Position numbers and translations under genes: made by a program. The notes beneath the pieces were generated by a model. It saw only the letters and a program-made list of their open reading frames with translations, had not been told where the DNA came from and did not search any database. DNA of 19,300 nt, taken from a virus. The stretch lies in UHGV virus genome UHGV-1570996. One strand, written 5' to 3'. Shown here piece after piece: positions 1 to 5,524 of this stretch (positions are counted from its first letter, which is position 1; each line of letters opens with the position of its first letter).

Positions 1-134
1 CCATGATTTTCATTTTCAAATATTATTAAATAACAATTCCTATTTATAATATCTGTCATTTAATTTGCTCCAGATACAAGGAATCGCCGCAGCATGGCTA
101 CGGTTGGTATTTGTTGCATACCGAAACGGTACGA

Positions 135-163
135 TTGTTGATTTGTACAGTAGGTTTTACGAT
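135..163 (+). promoter_or_regulatory. Candidate sigma70 promoter for mnt (-35 TTGTTG at 135-140, 17-bp spacer, -10 TACGAT at 158-163)
   Basis: Hexamers read directly from sequence; AT-rich region upstream of the mnt start; near-palindrome CCACCCATTTGGTG (172-185) sits between predicted TSS and RBS. Confidence 0.25.
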
Positions 164-191
164 GCCATTCCACCCATTTGGTGAGGCATTG

Positions 192-449
192 ATGATGTAC
201 AGCAAATACGATGAGGCGCAGTTCCACTTGAGGCTTACGCACGAGTTGCACGCTAAGATTAAGCAGCGTGCAAAAATGAATAACAGGTCTATCAATTCCG
301 AAATTGTGGCTACGATGGAAGAATCACTCTCCAAACCATCACCTGTAAGCGGGTATCGTGATGAAGAAGAGAGGCTGGCCTCATTAATCTCGGAACGAGT
401 AAAAGAAGTTGCGGCTGATATCCTTAGAAAAGAAAAAACCCGCGATTAA
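192..449 (+). CDS. mnt: Mnt-like ribbon-helix-helix repressor (homolog of P22 immI Mnt)
   Basis: Translation from ATG 192 (GTGAGG RBS 6 nt upstream) gives about 85 aa; N-terminal strand-helix region FHLRL...NNRSINSEIV matches the Arc/Mnt RHH pattern (recalled P22 Mnt GRSMNSEL); C-terminal SKPSPVSGYRDEEERLA closely matches recalled P22 Mnt SKPSPVTGYRNDAERLA. The ORF-track start at 111 is judged an upstream extension. Confidence 0.7.
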   Translation: MMYSKYDEAQFHLRLTHELHAKIKQRAKMNNRSINSEIVATMEESLSKPSPVSGYRDEEERLASLISERVKEVAADILRKEKTRD

Positions 450-457
450 GCGGGTTT
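436..457. terminator. Bidirectional rho-independent terminator between convergent mnt and the ant operon
   Basis: AAACCCGC-gattaa-GCGGGTTT hairpin; on the minus strand it is followed by TTTTTCTTTTCT, on the plus strand by a weaker T-rich tract; the mnt stop codon lies in the loop. Confidence 0.6.
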
Positions 458-463
458 AGTTGG

Positions 464-685
464 TTAGTTATCAAAAAGTCCGTACGTTTCTTCTTCTTCA
501 GGTGTAAGGGGAAGAATCTCTACTCTATCTATAGATACCTTTTCAATGTACCCATGAGGTCTACTTAAAATTAAAGCTCTCTCATGCCACAGAACTCCAA
601 GAATGTGATACCTTCCAGCATCGCCTTTTACCCTGGCTCTTCCTTTGATTCTTGGCGGCATAATGCCATATTTTTTCTTTGCCAT
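464..685 (-). CDS. Hypothetical 73-aa protein, translationally coupled to the upstream antirepressor gene
   Basis: ORF with ATG at 685-683 overlapping the TAA stop of the upstream gene by one base (TAATG); basic N-terminus, acidic C-terminus; no family recognised. Confidence 0.5.
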   Translation of the reverse strand: MAKKKYGIMPPRIKGRARVKGDAGRYHILGVLWHERALILSRPHGYIEKVSIDRVEILPLTPEEEETYGLFDN

Positions 686-1413
686 TATGCAACATTACTC
701 CCATGAATCAGGTGTTGTAGTGCTTTAACACCTTCCGCATTGTAGCGGAATGCTTCCACCTGTTTGCTGGAATGCGCAGATTTATCCAGGAAGAACTTAC
801 CGTACTGCTCAGTTTTGAGGTTGTTTGCGTTAGCAATGCGACCAATCTTGTTGGCCGTTACTCCAAGCTGCTCTGCAACCTCCCCTGCTGAGTAGTAATG
901 CTCTTCTATTGCTGGAAGAGGTATTGCATTAAAACCAACGATCGGGTTGATTATGCTTGCTGCCGCAGTCTGCTTTGCTTCCGGCGCAAGATTTGGCATC
1001 AAATCGAACAGATTGGTAACAGCTTCAACCGTCATTTTCAATGTTCGCGCCTGGCGATACTCAACAAGTCCACTAGACGATTTACCGCTTTTAATGTGCG
1101 CTTCTTGCATACTTTCAAGTTGGTCTACAAGTGAGCGGCGAACAGCTTTAGATTCACGAGCAGCCACTCGAAGGGCTTGCTTAATTGACATAACAACTTT
1201 TTCAGAAGTTGTCTTGTTTGATTTTTGAACTACGAAAATTTCGTAGTGCTCACCTTCAAGTTCATCCTTAATGCGTGCAATAAAGTCGTTATTGCGGACT
1301 TCTTTTTCCCCGCACTGTCTACGAGCATGATTGACCATCTCTAACAGGTACTGGCTATCAATGGTTTTATCCGTGACAACGGATCCGATGTTTGCTACAT
1401 TCTTAAAAGTCAT
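685..1413 (-). CDS. Antirepressor-family protein, Rha-like N-terminal region with KilA-C-like C-terminal domain (ant2)
   Basis: Start chosen at ATG 1413 (AAGGAA RBS 7-8 nt upstream) rather than the track start 1464; C-terminal YYSAGEVAEQLGVTANKIGRIANANNLKTEQYGKFF resembles the KilA-C/ANT C-terminal domain; N-terminal TIDSQYLLEMVNHARRQCGEKEVRNNDFIARI resembles phage Rha regulatory proteins. Confidence 0.6.
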   Translation of the reverse strand: MTFKNVANIGSVVTDKTIDSQYLLEMVNHARRQCGEKEVRNNDFIARIKDELEGEHYEIFVVQKSNKTTSEKVVMSIKQALRVAARESKAVRRSLVDQLESMQEAHIKSGKSSSGLVEYRQARTLKMTVEAVTNLFDLMPNLAPEAKQTAAASIINPIVGFNAIPLPAIEEHYYSAGEVAEQLGVTANKIGRIANANNLKTEQYGKFFLDKSAHSSKQVEAFRYNAEGVKALQHLIHGSNVA

Positions 1414-1482
1414 TAGGCATTCCTTATGTGGTAGTAAGGGTGTGACATAGGCCGCCAGCAGCACACTGGCGGTTTTCTTTTT
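1408..1482 (+). ncRNA. Candidate sar-like antisense RNA covering the RBS and start codon of ant2
   Basis: Plus-strand -35 GTGACA (1373-1378), 17-bp spacer, extended -10 TGcTACATT (1393-1401), then a plus-oriented hairpin plus T-run at 1451-1482; no plus-strand gene is present here. Confidence 0.3.
1451..1482 (+). terminator. Plus-strand rho-independent terminator in the ant1-ant2 intergenic spacer
   Basis: GCCGCCAG-cagcaca-CTGGCGG stem-loop followed by TTTTCTTTTT on the plus strand; on the minus strand the same hairpin is preceded by an A-tract with no U-tract after it, so it is oriented for plus-strand transcripts. Confidence 0.45.
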
Positions 1483-1501
1483 GCGCCGTCCGGCGCACCA
1501 A

Positions 1502-2128
1502 TCAATGAATCCATTCCTCGCCGCGCAGTTTTGCCAGCATTGGCTGAGCGTTCTTTACGACAAAATTGTTGGTATCAAGATTCTTCATTTCACGAAGAAG
1601 TGATTTCTTGGTTTCTTCTGACATGTAGCGAGTCTCATATGCAATATCGTAAATCCTTCCTGAAAGCTCAGAACCAATTTGCTTCATTCCTGGGTAGATG
1701 TGTTTGCACATTTGTTGACTCTTCTCCATCCACAATTGTAAGTAGCAGAGATTAACCAGTTCTTCGTCAGTAAACTGTTTTGCAATCGGTGAGCATTCTG
1801 CCTGCCGATCCAAAATATCCAGCACCCAGCGGCGGAACTCTTTGGCTACCGGAGTGCGAGCAAACATCGCGATTAGGTGGGCACCGCGTAGTGAGAAAAC
1901 TCGCACTTTTTTGCGATAATTTCCTGAGGTACTCACTTCGAGTACCTGAGTCATTCCGGCGCTAAATTCATCGCTATACTTGTTATAAATCATTGTTACT
2001 GCACGACTATTTGCGTATTTAAGTGCAGATGCAATATTAGATGATGTAAACCAAACACCATGCATATCACGGGTGGGCACCAACTCAACTCCGTGGAAGT
2101 TGTAATCTGATTTTGCTACAATATTCAT
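1502..2128 (-). CDS. Antirepressor-family protein with AntA/BRO-N-like N-terminal domain (ant1)
   Basis: Start chosen at ATG 2128 (AAGGAAA RBS 7 nt upstream), giving about 208 aa beginning MNIVAKSDYNFHGVELVPTRDMHGVWFTSSNIASALKY, typical of the N-terminal domain of phage antirepressors; the track start 2233 would overlap the arc ORF. Confidence 0.6.
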   Translation of the reverse strand: MNIVAKSDYNFHGVELVPTRDMHGVWFTSSNIASALKYANSRAVTMIYNKYSDEFSAGMTQVLEVSTSGNYRKKVRVFSLRGAHLIAMFARTPVAKEFRRWVLDILDRQAECSPIAKQFTDEELVNLCYLQLWMEKSQQMCKHIYPGMKQIGSELSGRIYDIAYETRYMSEETKKSLLREMKNLDTNNFVVKNAQPMLAKLRGEEWIH

Positions 2129-2205
2129 GTTAGTTTCCTTGCATACGGTTACTGACATAGAGGCCCGGTTTGTGTTCGCGCACTGCCGGGCTTCACTATT
2201 TTTAT
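2129..2205 (+). ncRNA. Candidate sar-like antisense RNA complementary to the ant1 RBS and arc-ant1 spacer
   Basis: Plus-strand extended -10 TGcTACAAT (2114-2122) just inside the ant1 start predicts a TSS near 2129; plus-oriented hairpin GCCCGG...CCGGGC (2163-2190) followed by TTCACTATTTTTATT; arrangement parallels P22 sar as recalled. Confidence 0.35.
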
Positions 2206-2375
2206 TGGATGACAACATCGCCCTTTGCCTCAAGTTTCATCAATAACTCCATTCGATAAGCTATCTCTGCCTGAATTGACCTATGGCATCTTTTTGCTGA
2301 TTCGCGGATATGTGAATCAACCTTTTCTGTAAAACGAACCTGACGCGGCTTGATGGAAGATATCTTTTCAGTCAT
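2202..2375 (-). CDS. arc: Arc-like ribbon-helix-helix repressor (57 aa; below the ORF-track size cutoff)
   Basis: Manual translation from ATG 2375 (AGGAG RBS, 6-nt spacing) to TAA 2204-2202: MTEKISSIKPRQVRFTEKVDSHIRESAKRCHRSIQAEIAYRMELLMKLEAKGDVVIQ; strand QVRF then two helices with an RS-x-x-EI motif as in P22 Arc (GRSVNSEI); lies immediately upstream of ant1 as arc does in P22. Confidence 0.65.
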   Translation of the reverse strand: MTEKISSIKPRQVRFTEKVDSHIRESAKRCHRSIQAEIAYRMELLMKLEAKGDVVIQ

Positions 2376-2424
2376 TATGCACTCCTGTTTTTGAAAAACT
2401 CATAATCTCACTTTTTGCAGTTTG

Positions 2425-2453
2425 ATTATTCACTCACACTCAGTATGAGTCAA
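2425..2453 (-). promoter_or_regulatory. Candidate Pant-like promoter with operator repeats in the spacer
   Basis: Minus-strand -35 TTGACT (plus 2453-2448), 17-bp spacer, -10 AATAAT (plus 2430-2425), about 45 nt upstream of arc; spacer holds tandem CACTCA CACTCA plus an inverted TGAGTCA copy (plus 2431-2453), including inverted repeat ACTCA-gta-TGAGT. Confidence 0.4.
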
Positions 2454-2474
2454 TGAATTTTTTATGGTGAACTA

Positions 2475-3116
2475 ATGAATTTTGACGATCAATTCCCATC
2501 AAGAGTATCTCTGGCAAGACAGTCCAGGGGTATGACGCAGGCGCAGTTGTCAAAATTAGCTGGTGTTGTTCAACGTCAAATAGCTGCATACGAGGGTGGT
2601 GAGGCTAAACCACGGCTTCGTGTATTGCAGGCATTAGCCAACGCATTAGGTACTACGGCTGAGTGGTTAGCTCTAGGTGAAGGTCAGGGTCCAGGAACAA
2701 AAAACGTCATGCCTGACGTTCTGGTAAAGCAAATACCAATTCTCAAACTAGATGAAGTTATGCATTACCTAAACACAGGTGAACATTCATCGTCTAGATT
2801 TCATCCGGCAATATACAATGTTGGTGACTCTGCATTTGCATTGACTATTGAAGGTGAAGCTATGACTACAAGTTCAGGTATTAGCTTTCCCAGAGGATCG
2901 GTTGTCACGTTCAGCCCTCTAGTAAAAGCTAAAAGCAAAGATTATGTAATAGCATCATTGGATAAAGAGCAAATATTGAGCTTCAAACAGGTTTACATTG
3001 GTGAAATAGAGACAAACCTAGTATCCCTAAACCCAATGTATCCTAATATTCTTGTTAGAAATGAAGATGTTAGTATTTTGGCAACCGCAGTTTACCTTGA
3101 AATCCCGTTGCTTTGA
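2475..3116 (+). CDS. cI/C2-like repressor: N-terminal HTH (XRE type) and C-terminal LexA/S24-like domain with catalytic Ser apparently replaced by Ala
   Basis: 213-aa ORF with GGTGA RBS; HTH region MTQAQLSKLAGVVQRQIAAYEGGEAKPRLRVLQALANALG; C-terminal EGEAMTTSSGISFPRGSVV aligns with lambda cI EGNSMTAPTGSKPSFPDG (Ser to Ala at the nucleophile), FKQV aligns with cI FKKL, and LNPMYPNI with LNPQYPMI. Confidence 0.8.
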   Translation: MNFDDQFPSRVSLARQSRGMTQAQLSKLAGVVQRQIAAYEGGEAKPRLRVLQALANALGTTAEWLALGEGQGPGTKNVMPDVLVKQIPILKLDEVMHYLNTGEHSSSRFHPAIYNVGDSAFALTIEGEAMTTSSGISFPRGSVVTFSPLVKAKSKDYVIASLDKEQILSFKQVYIGEIETNLVSLNPMYPNILVRNEDVSILATAVYLEIPLL

Positions 3117-3176
3117 TATCCTTTAGGAAGCGACACATTATCATCTGGTATCCTGCTCAAAACTAAGGAGGTTGGT

Positions 3177-3404
3177 GTGAAGCGATGGTTCCTCATAATT
3201 ACTGTTTTCGCGATCATTTACGCTATTTTCCCTGCATTAAAAGCACCAATGCAAATAATTTCACTAGCAATAATTGCAATTGGTGCTTTCATTACAGTAT
3301 CCGTACTTGTGTTTAAGGTTTTAAAGTTTTTAGTTTGGCTATCAAAAGATGATGGATGCAAAGTTCATCAAGAAAAAGAAGGCAAAATAACCAAAGTTGA
3401 CTAA
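3177..3404 (+). CDS. Small 2-TM membrane protein (75 aa) downstream of the repressor gene
   Basis: GTG start at 3177 preceded by AAGGAGG with 6-nt spacing; two hydrophobic helices (FLIITVFAIIYAIF and IISLAIIAIGAFITVSVLVF) and a charged C-terminus; its stop overlaps the stop of convergent gp16. Confidence 0.5.
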   Translation: MKRWFLIITVFAIIYAIFPALKAPMQIISLAIIAIGAFITVSVLVFKVLKFLVWLSKDDGCKVHQEKEGKITKVD

Positions 3405-5524
3405 CTGTCACTAGCGAGCCATGTAATAATCCCAGTGCGAGCAATGGTTTTTGCTTCATCTGTTGATAGGGTTTTCTCCCATCTCTTAAATACCCCAGAT
3501 TGCATCAGTTTCCTTTCTATTGCGCGTCTCACTTCTGCTCTGTCTACTGGTGCGTTTTGCAGGCGAAATAGCATTGATTTAAACTCAGGAGAAGACAGTA
3601 GAGCATCAGCAGCCTTTATCCTGCTTGTTTTCCCTGACATCAATGCGGACGTTATCACCCCTGTTGCACCTACACCAGGAAGACCAGATAAGCTTGTAAC
3701 ACCTTCCGCCGCAGCAGCTTTTGAGGCTATTCCATAAATTTTTGCTAGACTACCCTTTTCCTTCAGAAAGTTATTAACTTGCTGATCCACAAGGCTGCTA
3801 GCATACTGCTTACCAGTATTGAGTCTATTCATAGCCTTGGCTGCTTGATAAATCGTATCAAGGCGCTTTGATGCATCTGTGCCAATAGCATCACGGAGAG
3901 CCTTCATATTGGCCCCATTGCGTGACATTCCGTTATACCATTTTACAAATCCATCAACCCCTAATTGCTGACCTGGTGATTTAGCATAGCTGGTAAATGC
4001 TTTATTCATTGAGGTGAGCGCAACTTCCTGCCGCATATCCTTTGGAATTGACTTCATTAATTGCCTAAAGTCACCACCGTTTCCTTTTGCCATATTAACA
4101 ACGGCACTTTCAACTTTTGGAATTGCTGATTGCTGAAGTTTTCTACCCAAAACGGTTACGGCATCATCTTCAATGGATTTTCGTGTTTTTACCAACTCCT
4201 TACCAAGCGTCCATAACTCCCCTGCGCCATATTTTTCTGCGACAGCCTGTTGGTCATCTGTTATAGCTGCATATAACTTTTTAAGAACACCTGTTTCTTC
4301 ATCCTTGAATGGGCCAGAGCCTTTGCCAATAGCTTGCCCAACCTGCTTTCTAGCGAGATCTAAACGCCCATACGTTGGCAAGGTGTTTGGATCAAGTCGG
4401 TTCAATGTCCGCTTCATTATTGGAGATAATTCATCAATTCCACCTATGTCATCAGCAAAATCCTCTAAAAAATTCAATGTATTGGTTGCCTCAATACGGT
4501 CTCTTACTGGAACCTTTTCGGCAATTTTGTTGTAGATGTTATCTGACTGATTTTGTAATGATGAAATGGTTTTATCAAAATTATCTGCAAGCCTGTCAGA
4601 AACCAGTTGCTTATCAAGGTTTCCCCCAAATGAAGTTATCATTTCATCAGCTTTTCTTCCTAATTCAGTAATAAAGCGCTTATGCGCCTCACTAATCTCT
4701 GTTCCAGGAAGACTTGCCACTGCATTATCAAGAGCCCTGACAGCAGGATTATTAGAGATCATTCCTGGAGTGGCATAATTTTCCAGTTCTAGCTCACGGA
4801 TGGCATTTATCGCGTTAAAATCAGGATTAACTTCATCGGCGAAACCTTGAATAGCTCGTTGCCCGCCAATAAATTTATTATCCATTGCGCCAGCAGCTTT
4901 CTTTAACGTTGCTTTAAATGATTTACTCCCCATCCCTACGGATGAGCGATAAATATCCCCGGCACTATTTTTAATTTTTCCTGCAATCTTCCCAAGCGCT
5001 GGACCAACAATCTCGGCTACAGGGCCAGCCACAGCGCCAATAGCAGCGCCGGAAGCAACATCGCTATTTGTTCCATTGGCTACAATAGCCCCTTCTCCAG
5101 CACCAAGCCCTGCGGCGGCAGCCAGCCTTGCCGCCCCTTTCGGAACCTGAGAAATAATCCCACCACCACTAACAAATGGCGCGGCTTGTCCAACAAACTC
5201 ACCAACATCTTGTGCGGTTGATGGTTTTGCCGCTAACTTCTGCTGTAGAGACTGAATTGCGGCTTGCTCTTCTGGTGTCATATCCTGAAACAGGCCAACA
5301 CCTTTACCAACATCCATCAATCCACTGAGAACGCCATACATAAAACGGTCGAAGCCGTTAGCATTATTAACAACATTTTCCTGTCTGGAATTTTCCTCTG
5401 GTGAAACCAAAGGAGATTGCTGCTGTTCTGGTTGGGCATCAAGCACAAAGCCATCAGGAAGCTGTGAGTTATCAGGCTGATTATCGAGAACAAAGCCTTC
5501 GGGTAAACCTACATCGGTTGCCAT
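3401..5524 (-). CDS. gp16-like ejection (internal virion) protein, N-terminally extended with a short tandem repeat
   Basis: 707-aa ORF at the position of P22 gene 16 (last gene of the morphogenesis operon after gp20); Ala/Gly-rich low-complexity segments; N-terminus carries [12 protein letters not shown] / [12 protein letters not shown] repeat. Confidence 0.65.

Follow-up and report, generated by a model that had tools for sequence, protein, structure and literature searches.

A predicted second antisense unit, sar2, over the start of ant2 in the immI region of a P22-like Escherichia coli prophage

We analysed a 19,300-nucleotide stretch of the virus genome UHGV-1570996 (the window), in which an interval on the plus strand, 1373-1482, lies across the start of the minus-strand gene ant2. 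We consider it likely that this interval is a small cis-antisense RNA gene acting on ant2, and we refer to the predicted RNA as sar2 and to the interval as unit 2. The immI region of P22, with its single sar RNA, is the textbook example of antisense control. In the window a sar-type antisense unit (unit 1) lies over the start of ant1, the gene preceding ant2 in the same operon, and unit 2 stands in tandem with it. The parts of unit 2 and its target gene are the following.

1373..1378, plus strand: -35 hexamer GTGACA of the predicted promoter Psar2, from the promoter scan, within ant2 codons 12-13.
1393..1401, plus strand: extended -10 TGcTACATT, with the TG at 1393-1394 and the hexamer TACATT at 1396-1401, within ant2 codons 5-7 (N-V-A).
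1408..1482, plus strand: predicted antisense RNA sar2, about 75 nucleotides, from a start placed 7 nucleotides past the -10, the fold and covariance model R1.
1409..1446, plus strand: 5' stem-loop carrying the anti-Shine-Dalgarno sequence CCUUA, from minimum-free-energy folds.
1449..1482, plus strand: intrinsic terminator, consisting of a hairpin (1449-1475) and the T-run TTTTCTTTTT, from the terminator scan and covariation.
685..1413, minus strand: ant2, the target gene, 242 amino acids plus stop, from the list of open reading frames (ORFs), with its ATG at 1413-1411 and the Shine-Dalgarno sequence AAGGA at 1425-1421.

We propose that the extended -10 sigma-70 promoter in ant2 codons 5-13 would start a transcript at about A1408, which would pass the ant2 start codon and Shine-Dalgarno sequence and end at the 1449-1482 terminator, giving an RNA of about 75 nucleotides with two hairpins. 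On the arc-ant1-ant2 mRNA, and likewise on read-through transcripts of the late operon, this RNA would pair with the intercistronic stretch between ant1 and ant2, so that the ant2 ribosome-binding site would be occluded and Ant2 would not be made. Transcription of sar2, its pairing with the mRNA and the resulting translational repression are proposed by analogy with P22, in which sar acts by RNA pairing at the ribosome-binding site (PMC7968456). Unit 1 (2114-2210) would act likewise on ant1.

We found that Psar2 matches the -35 consensus at five of six positions, has a 17-nucleotide spacer and a TG-extended -10, and is contained entirely in ant2 codons 5-13. Its -10 belongs to a motif, GATGTTTGCTACATT (1387-1401), whose counterpart GATTTTGCTACAAT is found at 2109-2122. 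In the 19.3 kb there are just two exact copies of the 11-mer TTTGCTACAWT, at 1391 and 2112, both on the plus strand and antisense within the first codons of an ant gene (ant2 and ant1, respectively). When up to one mismatch was allowed, four matches were found where 1.07 are expected. At the sequence level, unit 2 thereby has the extended -10 promoter in the first ant codons, oriented antisense, that characterizes a sar-type unit. The first-pass annotation had reported both the GTGACA hexamer with its 17-bp spacer and the near-identity of the motifs at ant2 and ant1, and we recovered each of these; it had placed the motifs before the ant genes, but they are located inside the 5' coding regions, on the opposite strand, as is Psar of P22. 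A role of the motif as a repressor operator was also considered and set aside; the region of the operon promoter Pant (2376-2474) shows a different palindrome, ACTCAGTATGAGT, by eye.

The homologs of ant2 used for comparison were gathered independently of the cassette. Among 80 such loci in IMG/VR viral contigs the full cassette was present in 75, as 25 distinct sequence versions. We aligned 18 of the distinct versions, counting KP12 and AMR2684 (alignment A1), and found that GTGACA and TGCTAnAnT are invariant in all 18, as is the base at the predicted start, A1408. Third-codon positions of these variants are invariant at 5 of 5 sites inside the promoter elements vs 2 of 11 outside (p ~0.005 by our own hypergeometric estimate, which ignores phylogeny); both wobble positions within the -35 are invariant while flanking wobble sites vary. 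Amino-acid changes within the -10, from N to T and from V to L, retain T1, A2 and T6 of the hexamer, and a change from V to S likewise leaves the key promoter bases unchanged.

The same arrangement is seen beyond the viral contigs. A genome scan that used one genome per species gave eight full-length homologs with 42-68% amino-acid identity, from Buttiauxella, Citrobacter, Kluyvera, Dryocola, Intestinirhabdus, Atlantibacter, an unclassified Enterobacterales bacterium and a contig labelled Chryseobacterium. All eight carry the -35, the 17-nucleotide spacer, the extended -10 and the CAT at the same offsets, together with a 5' hairpin and a terminator. Conservation of the motif in related prophages, which had been suggested as a check on the original observation, is therefore borne out by both the viral and the genomic loci. 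We conclude from these comparisons, and from those of the terminator below, that the predicted Psar2 promoter and terminator are under purifying selection. Psar2 would then be an example of a promoter under selection within coding sequence, with wobble sites invariant down to 42% protein identity, and the sar2-type module appears to travel among prophages of several enterobacterial genera. The Chryseobacterium contig (CACSKA010000002.1, labelled Chryseobacterium sp. 18061) holds an enterobacterial-type ant2 homolog with the full cassette, and its label may reflect contamination or a mislabelled assembly.

A second family of target genes is that of gp22 of phage SPN3UB. No BLASTP similarity was found between this family and ant2, and all 80 gp22-family loci have TGCTAMATT in the N-terminal codons as well as a terminator. 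In complete E. coli genomes, unit 2 of the type seen in the window was present in 78 of 5,426, and strains with this prophage include HS, 55989 and O111:H8 strains. Scanning of IMG/VR viral contigs for the cassette pattern gave at least 120 stretches of DNA that carry it.

Downstream of Psar2 the interval 1414-1501 is a non-coding gap between ant1, whose stop codon is at 1502-1504, and the ant2 ATG at 1413-1411. The predicted start, A1408, lies 7 nucleotides past the -10, the spacing seen at the annotated 5' end of P22 sar, and the RNA from this position is complementary to the ant2 AUG (1411-1413), the Shine-Dalgarno sequence (1421-1425) and the ant1-ant2 intercistronic region. The 75-nucleotide plus-strand RNA folds with -25.1 kcal/mol (z = -2.77) into the 5' stem-loop and the terminator hairpin. 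The latter has 10 pairs, 6 of them G-C, and a 7-nucleotide loop, and the T-run TTTTCTTTTT ends at 1482. This G+C-rich stem-loop, followed at once by a U-run on the plus strand, is an intrinsic terminator by its features; it is strong, being the top terminator-like site of the region, and it follows 48 nucleotides downstream of the promoter. The predicted RNA also resembles that of a sar-type unit (about 70 nucleotides) in being complementary to the ribosome-binding site and in having its intrinsic terminator in the upstream intercistronic region. Two candidates in this interval were rejected. A longer ant2 ORF from GTG 1464 was excluded by the differing lengths of the leader classes and by the conserved ATG and Shine-Dalgarno sequence, and a second small hairpin, GCGCCGTCCGGCGC (1483-1496), is disrupted in many close variants and was not accepted as a conserved element.

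Covariation supports the terminator hairpin. In 21 distinct terminators 97.6% of the alignment cells are paired, with double changes at 3 pairs; in 29 distinct terminators from the two gene families 98.9% are paired, and compensatory changes occur at 5 of 9 pairs (25 cells). None of 500 shuffles, a control that ignores phylogeny, reached this covariation, and slid controls collapsed. No variant lacks the T-run, and the terminator loops differ freely in sequence. The 5' stem-loop is paired in 86% of cells, with 33 G·U cells on the plus strand vs 3 possible on the minus strand, counts that depend on a structure derived from the window sequence.

These structures might instead act on the minus-strand mRNA, by sequestering the ribosome-binding site or through stability or processing, with the plus-strand promoter resemblance being incidental. 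The minus-strand RNA does fold (-19.5 kcal/mol, z -2.25), and part of its Shine-Dalgarno sequence is then in a stem. However, the structure has 61 G·U cells on the plus strand vs 3 possible on the minus strand, where the 61 become A·C mismatches, and 17 of 18 variants fold better as the plus strand than as the minus strand. On the minus strand there is no U-run after the hairpin; the T-run becomes an A-run 5' of it, which has no known role there. Action on the minus strand also leaves the wobble-site invariance of the promoter unexplained, and we regard it as very improbable. The G·U pairs and the T-run, as read from the alignments, assign the structure to the plus strand. The earlier statements that a plus-strand hairpin and terminator are present, and that they have no coding-strand explanation, agree with the intergenic position of 1414-1501 and with this asymmetry.

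Several observations weigh against sar2 as an antisense RNA gene acting on an antirepressor. Promoter-like matches in the window are not enriched over shuffled sequence (5 observed, 7.6 expected), so the case for Psar2 rests on conservation and not on its match to consensus. Terminator-like sites are enriched (8 observed, 2.8 expected). The invariance of the -35 partly overlaps a conserved protein motif (VVT), and 5 of the 80 viral ant2 homologs have no canonical cassette, which makes the cassette dispensable. RNAalifold on 16 RNA variants gave no alignable consensus for the 5' stem-loop across leader classes and supported the terminator alone. Neither RF00262 nor any other Rfam family matched at unit 2, either in the window at the gathering threshold or in 1-3500 with E up to 10; as positive controls for RF00262, the sar RNAs of P22 and SPN3UB scored 97.8 and 48 bits. 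The ant2 product has no sequence match in Pfam, NCBIfam or PDB. Its name comes solely from the label of PHROG 1726, 'anti-repressor' (E = 2e-100), and the antirepressor role is putative. Finally, our searches turned up neither transcriptome nor genetic data on this phage group, and sar2 is predicted from sequence.

The lack of enrichment of promoter-like sites would fit a chance resemblance with no function. We give this next to no weight, since it is effectively refuted by the comparative data: of the 248 homologous loci that we examined, about 190 keep the arrangement, and this conservation spans two ant gene families and several genera and is accompanied by covariation. Elsewhere in the window only one other promoter-like site has a same-strand terminator-like hairpin within about 80 nucleotides, at 14529-14405 on the minus strand. 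This pair is probably due to chance because it is internal to a large late ORF and its T-run is weak. Among the cassette-less ant2 homologs (loci L078-L082 and L084), four keep TGCAATATT in N-I-A codons with a weak hairpin and no T-run, and one has neither.

Between the CAT and the terminator (1414-1448 in the window) the leader falls into at least six unrelated sequence classes across the homologs, and these are decoupled from gene-body similarity. A promoter and a terminator that are conserved around a hypervariable RNA body would be expected if convergent transcription were the active principle. Psar2, which points head-on into the operon from inside ant2, would then reduce transcription into ant2 by collision with, or occlusion of, polymerases from Pant or the late promoter Plate; the RNA would be a by-product, and the terminator would merely keep antisense transcription out of ant1. 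However, almost every leader class forms the 5' hairpin with its anti-Shine-Dalgarno sequence, the exceptions being L040 and L070, two variants close to the window class that retain it in part. The RNA always covers the ribosome-binding site and the AUG, and the P22 precedent is one of RNA pairing at the ribosome-binding site. We therefore consider interference unlikely as the main mode of action. It is not mutually exclusive with RNA pairing and may contribute.

We found that the unit is bounded by sequence junctions on both sides. One locus with an ant2 body (L085) and one with a gp22 body (L319) share 92% identity that sets in exactly at TGCTAAATT and extends over leader, terminator and upstream gene; their gene bodies have no similarity, so that the junction falls at the -10 motif. 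KP12 (L004) and AMR2684 (L005) have the same gene-body 5' end and different leaders. On the other side the context changes abruptly just past the T-run, and the neighbouring gene is a Bro-N type ant, a P22-type Ant or another gene. From the junctions at or just past TGCTAnAnT and those past the T-run it follows that the RNA unit is bounded by mosaic junctions at both ends, which indicates that the promoter motif itself is a junction, and on these comparisons we describe the antisense unit as an exchangeable module.

The mosaic junction at exactly TGCTAAATT, the shared gene-body end of KP12 and AMR2684 with its different leaders, and the divergence of upstream contexts right past the T-run would also be expected of recombination linkers, that is, motifs kept for the exchange of ant bodies with no RNA being made. 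Linkers of this kind leave the compensatory pairs, the G·U strand asymmetry and the obligatory T-run unexplained, as well as the invariant -35 with its 17-nucleotide spacing in a gene body that is not exchanged, and we judge this explanation improbable.

A broader proposal, which we put forward tentatively and consider possible rather than probable, is that these units are portable antisense cassettes in which a hypervariable leader lies between two conserved parts, an extended -10 and a terminator. The TGCTA motif would serve in addition as a recombination junction, at which unrelated antirepressor bodies are exchanged while the RNA brake is already in place. Specificity may reside in the leader, and as a determinant of immunity at the RNA level it would allow a prophage sar2 to silence only the matching ant2 of superinfecting relatives. 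Two RNAs on one operon would give cistron-specific, separate control of antirepressors co-transcribed from Pant and the late promoter. Antisense RNAs of plasmids are known to define incompatibility groups.

Unit 2 was compared with sar and with other antisense RNAs. Like unit 2, P22 sar is a cis-antisense RNA of about 70 nucleotides (70 in P22) that has two hairpins and ends in the upstream intercistronic region, and both face the ribosome-binding site of an internal antirepressor cistron (a putative antirepressor in the case of unit 2). The annotated P22 Psar, TGCTATACT, is in ant codons 3-5, and unit 2 has the same motif type inside ant codons. The terminator stems are GCCGCCAG/CTGGCGGC in unit 2 and GAAGCCC/GGGGCTTC in P22 sar. 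The 5' end of P22 sar, 7 nucleotides past the -10, adjoins the ant ATG, and its terminator overlaps the end of arc. In contrast, the predicted start of unit 2 is 3 nucleotides within the ORF, so that the AUG is covered, and unit 2 has a good -35 (5 of 6), serves a second, different gene family and stands in tandem with a true sar-type unit.

Units 1 and 2 have in common TTTGCTACAWT, their orientation, the two-hairpin layout and the TGACATAG stretch preceding the terminator. Unit 1 shares an GGGCTTCA...TTTTT tail with the sar RNAs of P22 and SPN3UB that unit 2 lacks, and in the alignment the promoter motif is all that unit 2 shares with the aligned sar group. A covariance model built from 16 unit-2 RNAs (R1) found a single copy in the window, at unit 2. 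With filters off it missed P22 sar (L088), unit 1 of the window, SPN3UB sar and unit 1 of E. coli A41, and it detected unit-2-type loci only. It also matched the second unit of SPN3UB, which was outside the training set, at 44.7 bits (E = 7e-7). That unit precedes gp22 ('transcriptional regulator'), lies downstream of an Rfam-recognised sar and, as a member of the unit-2 RNA family, has the same terminator and the TGCTACATT motif. It differs from unit 2 in its gp22 body, which is unrelated by BLASTP, in its -35 (TCGACA) and in the position of the motif, at codons 10-12. Unit 2 and P22 sar thus have no detectable relationship in sequence. On these models and alignments we assign unit 2 to an RNA family distinct from sar with the same architecture, and the same design would thus recur as a separate RNA family on the second gene of one operon.

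The first-pass annotation had described two tandem antisense units, one per antirepressor, as an unusual elaboration of the single sar system. The tandem layout is supported by promoter invariance, covariation and strand assignment, while the word antirepressor, for ant2, depends on the PHROG label. The two units are not copies of each other; they have only the TGCTAnAnT promoter motif and the overall layout in common. We found no description of a second sar-like unit in the accessible literature, which covers single sar alone, but with the counts in E. coli genomes and viral contigs given above the arrangement is not rare. No RNA is annotated at the position of unit 2 in the GenBank and RefSeq records inspected, including phage records that match it, and sar2 would add a small RNA family that is absent from Rfam and from the annotation of these records.

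The c4 RNA of P1 and P7 resembles sar2 as a small RNA that pairs near a ribosome-binding site, blocks synthesis of an antirepressor (icd-ant) and defines immunity specificity. It differs in being processed from the transcript of its own target and in acting at upstream sites via translational coupling; it is not a convergent cis-antisense RNA. Two other phage RNAs, a23, annotated in the P22 record, and OOP of lambda (PMC7067206), are likewise short and cis-antisense, and each has a promoter and a terminator of its own. These have other targets (gene 23/Q and cII, respectively), and a23 needs the activator C1.

The window covers the immI ('ant moron') region and late genes from an E. coli prophage of the P22-like (Lederbergvirus) type. 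Over positions 400-2500 its identity to prophages of complete E. coli genomes is 99.5%, and to Escherichia phage JEP4 it is 93%. The minus-strand operon holds four genes, in the order Arc-position gene, ant1, ant2 and orf73, and is headed by a Pant-like promoter. Its remaining features, with unit 1, are these.

2425..2453, minus strand: Pant-like promoter TTGACT-17-AATAAT, driving arc-ant1-ant2-orf73, the best promoter-like site of the region (10 of 12 matches).
2202..2375, minus strand: Arc-position gene, 57 amino acids, first in the operon, with a weak match to the ribbon-helix-helix family ParD_like and assigned to PHROG 10182.
2114..2210, plus strand: unit 1, the sar-type antisense unit over the ant1 start, with extended -10 TGCTACAAT (2114-2122) and predicted start G2129.
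1502..2128, minus strand: ant1, an antirepressor gene with Bro-N and P22_AR_C domains (Pfam), PHROG 245.
464..685, minus strand: orf73, of unknown function, from the ORF list and PHROG 4977.

The Arc-position gene is syntenic with the 'Arc-like repressor' of SPN3UB. In JEP4, a Lederbergvirus, the order is DNA transfer protein, immI and tailspike; in the window the late genes on one flank are on the same (minus) strand as the operon, and in JEP4 the tailspike gene is on the other flank. Late read-through transcripts should therefore include both ant cistrons. In P22, transcription from Plate runs through the ant region, which is part of the late operon (PMC2629481; PMC12111858). With such read-through each ant cistron would need its own post-transcriptional brake, and the tandem units would explain how two co-transcribed antirepressor-type genes could each be silenced in spite of it. 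As in P22-type immI, a small ribbon-helix-helix gene is followed by an antirepressor gene, in a late operon between the ejection-protein and tailspike genes. The mnt gene divergent from the arc-ant operon that belongs to P22-type immI was not found.

Unit 1 has hairpins at about 2128-2157 and 2160-2194 and a T-rich tail to about 2208, and its folding energy is -33.8 kcal/mol (z -4.55). It stays under the Rfam threshold for sar. Its sequence (TGCTACAATATTCATGTTAG...) aligns over the full length with P22 sar, SPN3UB sar and unit 1 of E. coli A41, and its -10 is retained in all 80 ant1-family loci. The T-run of sar-type unit 1 tails is separate from the stem, so these sequences were read directly. 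From the alignment we conclude that unit 1 is a diverged, true sar homolog. A symR match over unit 1 (21.8 bits vs a threshold of 61), the sole Rfam hit near unit 2, was weak and was treated as chance. In one IMG/VR locus of the ant1 family (L304) unit 1 no longer has its TG extension (CGCTATAAT) and its hexamer is now a perfect TATAAT, which looks like a compensatory promoter change. We also noted that the frame upstream of the ant1 ATG is open on the minus strand (2129-2233, within ORF 1502-2233) through the unit 1 terminator hairpin, and is likewise open in many homologs ('MPSKNSEARQCANT...'). This open frame is probably an artefact of hairpin composition and not coding.

Towards its far end the operon has the stop codon of ant2 overlapping the start codon of orf73 (ATGA, 685-688, minus strand). 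This suggests translational coupling, and if such coupling holds, sar2 would control orf73 as well. An Arc/Mnt-like gene (192-446, plus strand; PF03869, E = 4e-15), called mnt in JEP4, is convergent to this end of the operon, and a terminator at 436-457 that is apparently bidirectional is common to it and orf73.

The mnt position itself (2475-3113, plus strand) holds a LexA/CI-like repressor gene with HTH_3 and Peptidase_S24 domains, not Mnt (Pfam). A repressor of this type at this position suggests that Pant may be under SOS-cleavable control. Related prophages, for example that of E. coli 55989, have an Arc-family gene at this position instead. Between the repressor gene and the late genes a hydrophobic 75-amino-acid ORF (3177-3401, plus strand) with no Pfam match could be a moron gene of the membrane or superinfection-exclusion type.

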